Source: Escherichia phage Turkey5. Taken from it: 64,000 bases of DNA. The notes under the pieces were generated by a model. The model did not search any database. It worked only from the letters and a program-made list of their open reading frames with translations, and was not told where the DNA came from. Shown piece by piece: positions 1,017 to 5,440 of the stretch (its first letter is position 1; every line of letters begins with the position of its first letter). The position numbers and the translations under genes are program-made. The DNA is taken from the sequence record PQ471516.1. One strand, 5' to 3'.

Positions 1017-1274
1017 ATGGATATGTTACAAGTGCAATTAAAACAAAGTACTGACTTGATCCTTTCTATTATTGAAGATCTAAATCAACAGTACTTAGGT
1101 AAACGTGTAATAACTCATACAAAGATTAAAGGATTTGTTTCGTTAATTTATTTTAATTCATATGAAAATAAACTATGCGTTCGAATTAGAACCATAGATG
1201 AAGAAACTGGGTATGAGGATGGTGGATTAGTATCTGTTCCTTTTCAAAATTTAAGGTTATTAGAAGATGATTAA
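1017..1274 (+). CDS. hypothetical small protein, Y-x-GK-x-V paralog family
   Basis: 85 aa ORF; shares motif YLGKRV with ORFs at 1267, 4167, 5168. Confidence 0.5.
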   Translation: MDMLQVQLKQSTDLILSIIEDLNQQYLGKRVITHTKIKGFVSLIYFNSYENKLCVRIRTIDEETGYEDGGLVSVPFQNLRLLEDD

Positions 1275-1518
1275 AACAGAATTAGCATTAGTAAAACTGC
1301 ATGTAGACTACGCAACAGTACTCGTAGAAGATCTATCAAAAAAGTACGTTGGTAAACGTGTGCGTTGCTATTATAGTGAATATGATTATAAACATGATTT
1401 CCGTGTACAAGAGATTTTTCTGTTCGACGGAGTTATTAATATTCGTGTAATCAATGAACATAACCATACCTATACATATGGACTAAATGCTACTATAGAG
1501 GAATTACCAGATGAATAG
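1267..1518 (+). CDS. hypothetical small protein, Y-x-GK-x-V paralog family
   Basis: 83 aa ORF; motif YVGKRV; overlaps neighbours by a few nt. Confidence 0.5.
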   Translation: MIKTELALVKLHVDYATVLVEDLSKKYVGKRVRCYYSEYDYKHDFRVQEIFLFDGVINIRVINEHNHTYTYGLNATIEELPDE

Positions 1519-1807
1519 TGTTTTGTCAAAATTAAAAGAATTGAATTTCTATACTTACCTGTGGCTTGCTGAACAAGAACAGTTTGTAAGCAGATCTTAT
1601 TCCCATATAATGATTGAGTTATCAAAGGATATACTAAAAACAGAAGTAAAAGTATTTTGTCCAGAAGCTAATATGAGTGGTAAGATTGTTGATTTTACTT
1701 TCGCTGGATTTATCAACTATAATTATGAACGTACACTGGGTATTAAGGTTGAAATTGGGGAAGACGACTATTGTACCTTTCAGTTGCCAGATTTGGTGAT
1801 ACAATGA
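1511..1807 (+). CDS. hypothetical protein
   Basis: 98 aa ORF, co-oriented, start overlaps previous stop. Confidence 0.45.
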   Translation: MNSVLSKLKELNFYTYLWLAEQEQFVSRSYSHIMIELSKDILKTEVKVFCPEANMSGKIVDFTFAGFINYNYERTLGIKVEIGEDDYCTFQLPDLVIQ

Positions 1808-2103
1808 ATGAGGAAGATTTAAGAATATTAACCCTCTATAGCAATCATTCGATAATTTTATATGAGATGGTTTATGAATACAAATACAGCGAGTATCCTT
1901 TATTTGATTTAGTACTGGATTTTTATAACGAAGTACGTGACAAATATTACGGTAAACCCATTGTAATATTAGATGATACATTTTATATAGCAGCAGTGTA
2001 TGGTTCATTAAATGGTATATTCTTTGATTTGAAATCGGATCTTAAATCAAAACATTTTGATGATAGTTTGTATATTTCGGAGATACCAAAATGTCGAATT
2101 TAA
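1804..2103 (+). CDS. hypothetical protein
   Basis: internal ATG at 1804 chosen (ATGA overlap with upstream stop); contains YGKPIV motif resembling the small paralog family. Confidence 0.45.
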   Translation: MNEEDLRILTLYSNHSIILYEMVYEYKYSEYPLFDLVLDFYNEVRDKYYGKPIVILDDTFYIAAVYGSLNGIFFDLKSDLKSKHFDDSLYISEIPKCRI

Positions 2104-2417
2104 CAGAAGAAGATTTAAAGTATCTTCTGTACGTAGAAAAATCTACCATATTAATTTCGTCGGTTTGTGAAGAGTTTGACGATACCATGTGGAAAGGATG
2201 TGTACCAACATATATTTTTAACACTATGGAAATATTGGAAAATAAGTTCTATAATAAATTAGTATATGAAAAGGAATATCCTAAAGTCAAACTTTATATT
2301 AAAGAATGCTTTTTCGCTGGACGCAATGGTTTTATGTTTGACACAGGACGAAACGAAAAAGAAAAGTACACCTTCACTAGTGTTTATCTTGATGAGATTT
2401 TGTTAGCAAAAGATTGA
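2091..2417 (+). CDS. hypothetical protein
   Basis: 108 aa ORF, co-oriented. Confidence 0.45.
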   Translation: MSNLTEEDLKYLLYVEKSTILISSVCEEFDDTMWKGCVPTYIFNTMEILENKFYNKLVYEKEYPKVKLYIKECFFAGRNGFMFDTGRNEKEKYTFTSVYLDEILLAKD

Positions 2418-2440
2418 CATTGAACTGGAATTGAACTATA

Positions 2441-2755
2441 ATGGACGAAATATTAAAAGAAATAGTACAATGGGAAAAGGACTTTGTTTTCATCAGTGAA
2501 CAAAGAAACAATGCACCAAAGAGTGTTCGATGTGCCATTGAGTACTACATTGATGAAATATGTGAATACCTGACTAAAAAGTACTGTCCATTTAGTTCAG
2601 GATATTCCACCAACAGTTTTGTAACCAAACGAGATGCAGATGAAATTCATATTGTAAAACGTATTACCCCAGGGTTTGGAAACTGGTTTGTATTCAACAC
2701 TGAACAACATGAATACCTATACATCGAAGATTTAAGAAATATTATCAAAATATAA
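2441..2755 (+). CDS. hypothetical protein
   Basis: 104 aa ORF, co-oriented. Confidence 0.45.
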   Translation: MDEILKEIVQWEKDFVFISEQRNNAPKSVRCAIEYYIDEICEYLTKKYCPFSSGYSTNSFVTKRDADEIHIVKRITPGFGNWFVFNTEQHEYLYIEDLRNIIKI

Positions 2756-2766
2756 GGAGAGTACAT

Positions 2767-3742: not shown

Positions 3743-3744
3743 GC

Positions 3745-3969
3745 ATGTTAGGTTTATTTGGAATTTATGGTTTTGTTGCAGTAACATCTTTTATTTGCAA
3801 TTTGGTAGTACTTTCATTTGGTAAAACAGGCGAGGAAGACTTTGACAGTCGCCTTAAAACTGCTGCACTAATGGCAATACTTTGGCCTGTTACTTTGGTG
3901 TACCTAGGAAACTCATTGGTACAGGACGCTATCGAGAAGTACATTAAGAAATCTAAAAAGGGAGAGTAA
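3745..3969 (+). CDS. small membrane protein (paralog of 3971)
   Basis: 74 aa, two hydrophobic helices; GIYGF...WPV motif shared with next ORF. Confidence 0.45.
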   Translation: MLGLFGIYGFVAVTSFICNLVVLSFGKTGEEDFDSRLKTAALMAILWPVTLVYLGNSLVQDAIEKYIKKSKKGE

Positions 3970-3970
3970 T

Positions 3971-4174
3971 ATGTGGGCTGTTTTTGGGATTTATATTTTG
4001 GTAGTACTGGCAGTATTTGTTTATAACTTCTTCACTAATTACGGTACACAAACACTAAGCATTACTGAGGTTGCAGGTGATTCGGTAGTTTCCGCTATCA
4101 TGTGGCCTGTGAATCTTTTTGTGCAGATTCTATGTATTGTTCCAGGGTTAACCAAGGATATAAAACATGACTAA
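3971..4174 (+). CDS. small membrane protein (paralog of 3745)
   Basis: 67 aa, hydrophobic; shares FGIY...MWPVNL pattern. Confidence 0.45.
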   Translation: MWAVFGIYILVVLAVFVYNFFTNYGTQTLSITEVAGDSVVSAIMWPVNLFVQILCIVPGLTKDIKHD

Positions 4175-4424
4175 TATAGATAAATCTCATATTCGTTATT
4201 TGTTTTCTTTAGTTGATGATTTTGTACAAGATATCAAGCCCAAGTACATTGGGAAAGAAGTACGTTTGACACATACCAGAGGTTACCATAAACATATCAT
4301 TGAAGATGTTATTCTTCGTAAGGGTGAGTTGTGCTTTAAAGTTTGCAATTACCTTGATGATGGTACGTTTGCTGGTTCTCAAATGGTACATGATGATAAG
4401 ATTATTTGGTGGGATATTGAATGA
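4167..4424 (+). CDS. hypothetical small protein, Y-x-GK-x-V paralog family
   Basis: 85 aa; motif YIGKEVRL. Confidence 0.5.
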   Translation: MTNIDKSHIRYLFSLVDDFVQDIKPKYIGKEVRLTHTRGYHKHIIEDVILRKGELCFKVCNYLDDGTFAGSQMVHDDKIIWWDIE

Positions 4425-5164
4425 AACATTTCTTAGAAGTAACTGTTCCAGATGATAAAGAACTATATATTGTGGGCGACATTCATGGTAATGCAAAACT
4501 ATGGGATATAACTAAAACAGAATTTGGCATTACTTCTGATGATTATGTTTTTAGCTTAGGTGATCTAATCGACCGAGGAACTCAAAGTGCTAAGTTACTT
4601 TTTGAGTTCCTTTTTGCCGATAACCGTTTCATGATTATCGGCAATCATGAACAACTATGTGTTGATTCTGAAAAGTACAGAGACTGGCATCACTGCTGGT
4701 TAATGAATGGTGGAGATAAGTTCATCGAGGAAATCGGTGATACTGGTATTCAGTTCTTTCGACAGTACTTAAATCAGTTACCATCAATCATCCAAATCAA
4801 CCACAGAGGTCTGAAGATTGGACTCGTTCATGCTGGTGTTGAACTGAAGTACCAGGACTGGGATCAGTTTATTTCTGGAACAAAATCGCTTAGTACTGAT
4901 ATAATTGAGTCATTGCTATGGGAACGTAAGACATTTGATTACTGCAAAGGAAACAATGTATATAATGCACCACGCATTCAGGGTGTTGACTACGTTCTTA
5001 GTGGTCATACTGGTGTGGTTGACCCATTGATTTATGGCAATCGCGTATGGATAGACAGTCAATTCATGAGTGGTGATTTAACCGTTGCCACCCCACAAAG
5101 TGGCAAGATGCGTTACTTGCGTCGAGAAAAGGACGATTATTCTTTTAATCGTTTTAAAAGGTAA
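4421..5164 (+). CDS. Ser/Thr protein phosphatase (calcineurin-like metallophosphoesterase)
   Basis: motifs GDIHGN, GDLIDRG, GNHE in canonical order. Confidence 0.8.
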   Translation: MKHFLEVTVPDDKELYIVGDIHGNAKLWDITKTEFGITSDDYVFSLGDLIDRGTQSAKLLFEFLFADNRFMIIGNHEQLCVDSEKYRDWHHCWLMNGGDKFIEEIGDTGIQFFRQYLNQLPSIIQINHRGLKIGLVHAGVELKYQDWDQFISGTKSLSTDIIESLLWERKTFDYCKGNNVYNAPRIQGVDYVLSGHTGVVDPLIYGNRVWIDSQFMSGDLTVATPQSGKMRYLRREKDDYSFNRFKR

Positions 5165-5167
5165 ATT

Positions 5168-5440
5168 ATGCACGAAGAGATACAACAATACCTAACTAAA
5201 CGCAACAATTTTGAAAGTATGATTTCATCGATAATTCAAGATTATCGAAATGAAGTTCATGCGTATCTATCTGACAAAATTGTTGGGAAACAAGTAATGT
5301 TTCAGTTAGAAGATGGCATTAATCCAGCAGGTATTCTAACGCGTATCGTCACTATGTCATATAATACTATCTACGTAGAAATCGAGTACAGTGGTAATAG
5401 ATTATATCAAACGGATATTAAGTACGTTACGTTTTTATAA
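5168..5440 (+). CDS. hypothetical small protein, Y-x-GK-x-V paralog family
   Basis: 90 aa; motif IVGKQV. Confidence 0.5.
   Translation: MHEEIQQYLTKRNNFESMISSIIQDYRNEVHAYLSDKIVGKQVMFQLEDGINPAGILTRIVTMSYNTIYVEIEYSGNRLYQTDIKYVTFL

Follow-up and report, generated by a model that had tools for sequence, protein, structure and literature searches.

Among the known systems nearest to the genes studied here are paralog sets of large phages, for instance those of the related jumbo phage CBB, in which 22 open reading frames (ORFs) are homologous to each other and have been read as duplication products (paralogs), and in which RpoD-like promoters lie upstream of mostly short hypothetical ORFs that are suspected early host-takeover genes (PMC5259590). 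For phAPEC6, the share of gene products without known function has been reported as 83% (PMC7247149). In this study, we have explored a set of small genes between positions 1,017 and 5,440 of a 64,000-nucleotide stretch of Escherichia phage Turkey5 (PQ471516.1), the whole of which we call the window. An earlier reading made from the letters alone (the sequence-only reading) had described them as an expanded family of dispersed proteins of about 85 residues that share a Y-[LVI]-GK-x-V motif, and had remarked that such paralogs in early regions are often host-takeover or anti-defence factors. Judged by profile comparisons, seven ORFs of the window (starting at 1017, 1267, 1804, 2091, 3380, 4167 and 5168) are true paralogs. 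We propose that they form a family of helix-plus-barrel proteins that would act as diversified protein-binding modules during early or middle infection; the functional half of this proposal is inferred, and in our judgement the proposal as a whole could go either way.

Like the paralog sets of CBB, the family consists of short hypothetical ORFs, here arranged in tandem arrays. The family is tied, however, to a block of RNA-repair genes and lies outside the zone in which short ORFs have a promoter each (see below). No sequence relationship of the family to any described paralog set was found, our literature search returned no paper on it, and it has not previously been described as a family; the articles on CBB and PA5oct offered general background on early regions only. 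The window belongs to an Asteriusvirus-type jumbo coliphage, with nearly all genes on the plus strand; across positions 1000-5500 it is 94% identical to Escherichia phage vB_EcoM_JNE01 (Asteriusvirus, 355.6 kb; hereafter JNE01), and 121Q, PBECO4 and their relatives are about 71% identical to it.

Family membership and shared motif

The six ORFs that had been listed at the outset, with starts at 1017, 1267, 4167, 5168, 1511 and 1804, all exist at those coordinates (A, B, H, I, C and D in Table 1), and the four hexapeptides quoted for them are correct. YLGKRV begins at residue 26 of A, YVGKRV and YIGKEV at residue 27 of B and H, and IVGKQV at residue 38 of I; a distance of about 25 residues from the N-terminus thus holds for the first three and not for I. 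The strict pattern Y[LVI]GK.V is found three times among the 100 proteins of the window (about 19,000 residues), in A, B and H at residues 26-27, against 0.05 expected, and none of 2000 shuffles reached three, which places the motif far above chance. Its looser form, as used by the sequence-only reading, gave four matches against 0.13 expected, and GK.V alone was barely enriched (10 observed, 5 expected). Across orthologs the conserved core is L-x-x-K-Y-x-G-x-x-V. In an alignment of 38 family sequences, the Gly is present in 87% and the Val in 84%, the Lys of "GK" is swapped for R, Q or I in many orthologs, and the positions conserved in at least 50% of the sequences are L23, K26, Y27, G29, K30, V32 and I45.

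Similarity extends well beyond the hexapeptide; a lack of it would have refuted the sequence-only reading, which on this point holds. In an all-versus-all phmmer comparison of the 100 window proteins, reciprocal hits joined B and H (1.6e-5), A and B (6e-4), D and E (6e-4), D and H (1.5e-3), and A and H (2e-3), and jackhmmer searches seeded with A, B or H converged on one set; those seeded with D or E also gave the same set as each other. We built ortholog groups from the syntenic block of JNE01, 121Q, UB, WPEC5, A4, K64-1, 7t3 and Munch, and compared each group by hhalign with a profile of the remaining family (for D, with E also excluded). The resulting probabilities were 89% for A, 96.7% for B (E 4e-10), 81% for D, 92.3% for G (confined to the N-terminal 40 columns), 95.5% for H and 90.6% for I. 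Most groups that had contributed no member to the profile stayed below 8%; two reached 15-21%, and one (grp10), at 78%, is counted as a probable family member. Between pairs of groups, hhalign gave 95.6% for D-E (E 1.2e-8, 91 columns), 79.6% for A-H, 60.8% for A-B, 46.5% for G-H and 45.6% for B-H, and 55-69% for H, I and G with the 121Q gp442-type group, which lies just upstream of the polynucleotide kinase/phosphatase (PNK) gene in relatives. Pairs with groups outside the family mostly stayed below 5%, the exception being B with grp01 (39%).

The alignments cover 32-66 residues (B 1-60 with H 1-58, A 8-63 with H 9-65, I 21-90 with the family), and their registers are transitively consistent: H5 aligns to I12 both directly and via the gp442 group, D32 aligns to H11 and G14, and the A-D, B-D, D-G and D-H pairs also agree. 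An iterative hidden Markov model (HMM) search with reversed and shuffled decoys included members at E below 1e-3, and no decoy scored below 0.05. When the model was built from A, B and H only, D (E 2e-3), the JNE01 copy of I and the gp442-type copy ranked directly after the seeds and above the best decoy; the A4 ortholog of G was matched at 6e-4 and the window copy of G alone only weakly (E 0.2-0.4). On its own, with D removed, E reached 3.4% against the family, and we count it as a member because of its clear paralogy with D. Based on these profile results, A, B and H make up a firm core of the family, with D, I and G as probable members.

Two ORFs interleaved with the family were rejected. 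ORF C, which had been put forward together with D as a weaker relative, reached 0.5% against the family profile; phmmer and jackhmmer link it only to its own JNE01 ortholog, and it carries GKIV at residue 57. ORF F reached 0.3%. Of the proposed weaker relatives D therefore stands and C falls, and the four motif-bearing ORFs are joined by two members that had been overlooked, E (2091-2417) and G (3380-3742). As for individual features, A has a Shine-Dalgarno sequence (AAGGA) upstream, D has about 21 additional N-terminal residues relative to A, B and H, the N-terminal helix of I is longer, and G starts at 3380, not at 3377, and contains acidic insertions that interrupt or extend its barrel.

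It could be argued that the shared hexapeptide is a coincidence of composition or of secondary-structure propensity among unrelated ORFans. Pairwise identities are merely 23-31%, several of the pairwise hhalign probabilities are modest (45-80%), and the ortholog alignments are shallow. However, the motif is about 60 times commoner than expected, the alignments extend over 32-66 residues in mutually consistent registers, decoy scores never came near those of members, all hits among 1951 ORFs fall within a single 8-kb block (see below), and two members have a common predicted fold. We consider such a coincidence hardly credible; the decoy-controlled HMM, the leave-one-group-out comparison and the genome census have effectively refuted it already.

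Table 1. Family members and other features of the window discussed in the text (positions in nucleotides of the window).
Feature	Position	Strand	Length	Motif (position)	Remarks
Member A	1017..1274	+	85 aa	YLGKRV (1092-1109)	Positional ortholog of 121Q gp445
Member B	1267..1518	+	83 aa	YVGKRV (1345-1362)	Ortholog of 121Q gp446; 8-nt overlap with A
ORF C	1511..1807	+	98 aa		No detectable family member
Member D	1804..2103	+	99 aa	YYGKPI (1945-1962)	
Member E	2091..2417	+	108 aa	FYNKLV, degenerate (2247-2264)	Tandem paralog of D
ORF F	2441..2755	+	104 aa		Interleaved with the family
Member G	3380..3742	+	120 aa	LTGKTV (3464-3481)	Ortholog of 121Q gp452 and A4_443
Member H	4167..4424	+	85 aa	YIGKEV (4245-4262)	Ortholog of 121Q gp454
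Member I	5168..5440	+	90 aa	IVGKQV (5279-5296)	Ortholog of 121Q gp456; directly downstream of the phosphatase gene
PNK, pseT-like	9..953	+			Annotated thus in 121Q, K64-1, 7t3 and A4
NinI-like Ser/Thr phosphatase	4421..5164	+			Annotation in related phages; between H and I
Zinc-ribbon protein, DnaJ-type	5451-5678		75 aa		
DNA ligase	7325-8743				Block neighbour
Sigma-70 consensus promoter	2414..2442	+		TTGACA-17-TATAAT (12/12)	Found in two scans; conserved in JNE01 (L001 7415)
Terminator-like hairpin	969..999	+		GAGCGGA-N9-TCCGCTC, then ATTTTTT	Read from the sequence; between the PNK gene and A

Distribution and evolution of the family

To place these copies in a whole genome of the JNE01 type (about 355 kb), we searched JNE01 loci L009, L001, L013-L016, L011 and L010 and used the window in place of 18-82 kb; this census covered 1951 ORFs from both strands of 368 kb of DNA, together with shuffled decoys. 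Every member lies inside one block of about 8 kb (JNE01 15.6-23.4 kb) that carries the RNA ligase, PNK and phosphatase genes and contains the equivalent of window positions 1017-5440; no family member was found outside it, and the same location holds in seven related loci. The copies thus form a local array, and the description of them as dispersed did not survive. In relatives, two to four further copies stand upstream of the PNK gene (121Q gp442, gp441 and gp433 types, and probably the gp437 type). Members or probable members outside the window are JNE01 (L001) 2501-2776, 4423-4677 and 4684-4998, 121Q gp433, gp437, gp441 and gp442, and K64-1 (L003) 7099-7371, 11322-11615 and 12873-13133. By the decoy-controlled HMM alone there are 6-8 copies per Asteriusvirus locus, and we estimate 9-11 per genome when E-type and borderline copies are included. 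The Alcyoneusvirus K64-1 has three copies, and the syntenic block of the Salmonella phages 7t3 and Munch has no detectable member.

With tblastn, B and H were each found once in all 34 of 34 Asteriusvirus-type records, always as "hypothetical protein"; at least these two copies therefore predate the genus and have been retained throughout. Taken at the level of sequence comparison, the family arose by old tandem duplications in the RNA ligase-PNK-phosphatase block of Asteriusvirus/Alcyoneusvirus jumbo phages. Outside this clade, profile and sequence searches of databases detected no member. A family HMM run against 1.84 billion representative proteins returned six hits only, all from the clade; such a search had been suggested from the outset. 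In a word-indexed protein search, H alone found one near-identical protein and the paralog alignment 17 close relatives of the window genes. The one locus matched by H in IMG/VR (L012) was rejected as spurious, with 49% G+C, no ORF at the match and no hit to the family HMM.

Members match the PHROG groups phrog_33398, phrog_37322, phrog_38615, phrog_29519 and phrog_29135, all of unknown function (B 7.5e-21 to phrog_33398, H 2.6e-29, I 3e-13, A 4e-5, G 2.6e-5). PHROGs thus keeps the members apart as at least five small unannotated groups, which we unify here as one paralogous family. The candidate ORFs had no significant match in Pfam-A or NCBIfam, and the family profile matched nothing significant among PDB sequences; the best PDB hit, CalpT10 (E 0.12), was disregarded. 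Altogether, an annotated relative of the family was found in none of Pfam, NCBIfam, PHROGs, the PDB sequences and BFVD.

The members change fast. They share 21-54% amino acid identity with their 121Q counterparts or give no BLAST hit, whereas the flanking proteins are 77% (PNK), 73% (phosphatase), 75% (zinc-ribbon), 94% (ligase) and 96% (ClpP) identical to those of 121Q. Against JNE01, the ratio of nonsynonymous to synonymous substitution rates (dN/dS) is 0-0.4 for A (0.10), B, E, G and I, which are therefore real genes under purifying selection. For D (1.4) and H (0.94) we do not claim positive selection, as these values come from only 7-10 substitutions. Member I has 70% amino acid identity to JNE01 and a dS of 0.43, against 97-99% and about 0.1 for the flanking phosphatase and zinc-ribbon genes. 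This indicates a local mosaic patch, which was probably brought in by recombination with another lineage. The members are 83-120 residues long and, as no hydrophobic segment was found in any of them, are taken to be soluble. With a pI of 4.1-6.2 and a net charge of -2 to -15 (about -15 in G), every member in the window is acidic.

Predicted fold

A structure prediction, another check that had been proposed, gave the same arrangement for the two members that were modelled. In the AlphaFold2 model of H (predicted local distance difference test, pLDDT, 72.6; predicted template modelling score, pTM, 0.60), a helix at 4-27 is followed by strands at 31-34, 43-51, 54-62, 68-75 and 79-81; in that of I (pLDDT 87.0, pTM 0.62), a helix at 2-38 is followed by five strands in the same order. 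Members are thus predicted to consist of a long amphipathic N-terminal helix and a five-stranded SH3/Tudor-like beta-barrel. The helix ends within the motif, whose Gly forms the tight turn and whose Val opens strand 1; the motif may therefore be read as a fold signature rather than a catalytic site. The paralogs vary in length mainly between strands 1 and 2, and in SH3 and Tudor domains the loop between these strands contributes to ligand binding.

The five-stranded SH3-like barrel of the models is also that of the Tudor/chromo/PWWP royal family (for example the PHF19 Tudor domain 6wau, the ERCC6L2 Tudor domain 6hq9 and the RBBP1 chromo domain 6bph). There are clear differences between the two. 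Sequence identity to the royal family is only 4-23%, the phage proteins have an extra N-terminal helix of 24-37 residues, and they stand alone, whereas the royal-family domains are eukaryotic chromatin readers. The alignment of 38 sequences has no conserved aromatic cluster in the barrel that would correspond to the aromatic cage; the sole aromatic kept throughout the family, the motif Tyr, is located ahead of the barrel. The likeness to Tudor domains is therefore one of fold only. The Pfam Tudor, chromo and PWWP models had no match at E up to 1, and the other matches listed were weak, unrelated and far below cut-offs. A Foldseek search of BFVD returned only unannotated phage proteins, among them proteins of 121Q and RaK2, at E 5e-3 or worse; a T4-type "MotB" (E 0.048, TM-score 0.47) was rejected as insignificant.

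The fold also bears on whether the proteins could be small-beta-barrel nucleic-acid binders of the Sm/Hfq, KOW or PWWP kind, for example RNA chaperones or transcription modulators in an RNA-repair module. Sm and Hfq proteins have an N-terminal helix and then five strands in 80-90 residues, the order seen in both phage models, and the genes sit among RNA-repair genes. Yet the phage helix is two to three times longer than that of Hfq, the acidity of all window members argues against RNA binding, and the positions conserved in at least half of the sequences (L, K, Y, G, K, V and I) do not form a conserved basic patch. Neither Sm1/Sm2 motifs nor a Pfam LSM, Hfq or KOW match (E up to 1; for KOW, PF00467) was found in the phage proteins, and no Sm or Hfq protein is among the top 60 structural matches of either model. 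KOW domains (NusG/Spt5; ribosomal eL27, eL14 and eL6) are basic, and the acidic phage proteins lack an NGN or ribosomal context. We give this possibility little credence.

SH3-like barrels likewise occur in phage structural and cell-wall-binding proteins, and one could suppose that the members are minor virion or assembly proteins. The 121Q record, however, flags gp468 and gp471 as structural and none of gp437-456, the genes have early-type enzyme genes as neighbours and are far removed from the structural modules, and no SH3b or structural Pfam or PHROG match was found. We regard a virion role as extremely improbable.

Possible functions of the members

Based on the fold and the pattern of divergence, we propose that each copy would be a non-enzymatic binding module with no chemistry of its own. 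The variable loops of the barrel would grip a different protein partner in each copy during early or middle infection, the N-terminal helix may serve pairing, and the copies would modulate host, or possibly phage, proteins as small adaptors or inhibitors. The members are small, acidic and fast-diverging and have a predicted fold of the peptide-binding type, all of which fits a host-takeover or anti-defence role, and the suggestion of such a role in the sequence-only reading seems to us a reasonable guess.

Several points weigh against this proposal. The conserved place beside three enzymes could equally mean that the proteins serve those enzymes and not host targets. At the sequence level, E and the window copy of G are members by transitivity, through D and through orthologs, respectively. 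The alignments behind the structure models were shallow (8 and 14 rows, mostly paralogs from the window); with a pTM of only about 0.6, it is uncertain how the helix is placed against the barrel, and the match between the two models is only partly independent, as the alignment for I held the other paralogs. Finally, SH3-like barrels are very widespread, and the fold says little about function.

The first of these points leads to what we rank as the strongest rival, namely that the paralogs are accessory or regulatory subunits of RNA ligase 1, PNK and the NinI-like phosphatase, made in fixed proportion to them by translational coupling so as to target or regulate them. A family member stands immediately upstream of each of the three enzyme genes throughout the genus, and in part also in K64-1. 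An overlap of 4 nucleotides joins the stop of H to the start of the phosphatase gene (in the window, in JNE01 and in A4) and both the gp437-type copy and the K64-1 ORF 7099-7371 to the start of the RNA ligase gene, and the gp442-type copy stops 0-12 nucleotides ahead of the PNK gene. Member I starts 3-6 nucleotides after the phosphatase gene, and the census found the family nowhere else in the genome. On the other hand, the whole block is syntenic and this adjacency may reflect vertical inheritance only; A, B, D and E adjoin no enzyme; 7t3 and Munch have the three enzymes without a detectable member; and the members diverge much faster than the enzymes, which would be unusual for obligate subunits. 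On balance, we consider this explanation unlikely.

It can also be imagined that the family is a modular adaptor set for the RNA-repair and counter-defence enzymes of the phage. RNA ligase 1 would be coupled translationally to the gp437-type copy, PNK to the gp442-type copy, and the NinI-like phosphatase to H and I. Each of these copies would direct its enzyme to a particular substrate or host complex (e.g. damaged tRNA or an anticodon-nuclease complex), and the free-standing A, B, D, E and G would act on host factors as decoys or inhibitors. We offer this as a long shot.

Gene neighbourhood and transcription

The genes of the block are tightly packed, with start/stop overlaps of 4-13 nucleotides and otherwise gaps of at most 23 nucleotides, and we take all copies to belong to such compact operons. 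The family array is flanked by the PNK gene on one side and the region of the phosphatase, zinc-ribbon and DNA ligase genes on the other, and the PNK gene is the conserved anchor of the block; the extra members of relatives lie immediately upstream of it, beyond the window. Right behind the PNK stop codon and ahead of A, the hairpin at 969-999 looks by its sequence like an intrinsic terminator. It ends only about 17 nucleotides before the start of ORF 1017, and phage Munch has an annotated terminator at the equivalent position. The hairpin was not caught by our scan because its loop is 9 nucleotides long.

Downstream of the promoter at 2414-2442 lie the ORF 2767-3378, G, H, the phosphatase gene and I. 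Sites of the form TTGACA-N16-18-TAnAAT number eight in the window, all on the plus strand, against 0.67 expected, and they are therefore very likely real promoters for the host RNA polymerase (2414-2442, 10275, 16081, 20407, 34770, 42130, 51999 and 52443). No comparable promoter for A-E was found in the window scans. The -10 element of 2414-2442 overlaps the ATG at 2441, which has no Shine-Dalgarno sequence, so that the transcript cannot encode ORF 2441-2755 from its annotated start. In T4, the ligase gene, like pseT and rnlA, is of the early or delayed-early class. For the family members, early or middle expression is plausible from the sequence features of the block.

A zone in which short ORFs each have their own promoter is present in JNE01 at about 267-335 kb, away from the family block, and resembles the early region proposed for CBB. 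The corresponding parts of JNE01, L010 (305.6-355.6 kb) and L011 (255.7-305.65 kb), hold dense arrays of ORFs of 45-110 residues with many spacers of 60-90 bp, and 17 and 13 exact sigma-70 consensus promoters, respectively, all on the plus strand. These arrays are likely, from their layout, the immediate-early region of this phage type, and the census found no family member in them.

Several neighbours of the family deserve mention. The zinc-ribbon protein (5451-5678) has two CxxCxG motifs, and its resemblance to the DnaJ central domain (Pfam E 9e-7) and to anti-TRAP (2e-5) stays below the curated cut-offs; with 75-81% identity to its 121Q and A4 counterparts it is highly conserved, which its small neighbours are not. 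The protein encoded at 2767-3378 (203 residues) has two N-terminal transmembrane-like segments, then a Pro/Glu/Val-rich region and a Ser/Thr/Asp-rich low-complexity tail with Cys-rich repeats at its end. It is kept at the same position in Asteriusviruses, with 53% identity to 121Q gp451. The ORFs 3745-3969 and 3971-4174 encode small membrane proteins that are tandem paralogs (phmmer 7e-4); the second has no counterpart in JNE01, 121Q or A4, and the first shares only 56% identity with its JNE01 ortholog, against 92-98% for the surrounding genes. This pair is a recent local duplication or replacement.

Other sets of paralogs are present elsewhere in the window. They comprise two proteins of about 900 residues (28898-31597 and 32214-34940) with a 195-residue relative at 31610-32197 (E 1e-66 and 1e-20), three tandem proteins of about 170-190 residues at 34975-36565 (3e-7 and 1e-2), two of about 240-260 residues beside the tail sheath gene at 62221-63798 (2e-37), and a ClpP-like pair at 10424-11119 and 14089-14751 (6e-5).

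Conclusion

In conclusion, our results merge ORFs that are listed as unrelated "hypothetical proteins" into one family with at least seven and up to about 11 members per genome. As a lineage-specific set of small accessory paralogs in a large phage, it belongs to a kind already familiar, and its fold is among the commonest small ones. It now has a predicted fold, a diagnostic motif and a fixed address beside RNA-repair enzymes, and it represents a small set that can be tested. Since old duplication, strict retention and fast change are typical of proteins that track changing partners, the members are reasonable candidates for host-interaction or anti-defence screens, or for tests as enzyme adaptors. 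This is of practical interest as well, as jumbo phages of the 121Q/PBECO4/RaK2 group are under development for therapy. If members turned out to serve PNK, RNA ligase or the phosphatase as adaptors, this would add to the knowledge of phage tRNA repair, and a modular adaptor set, if true, would be a previously unknown layer of specificity in that process.

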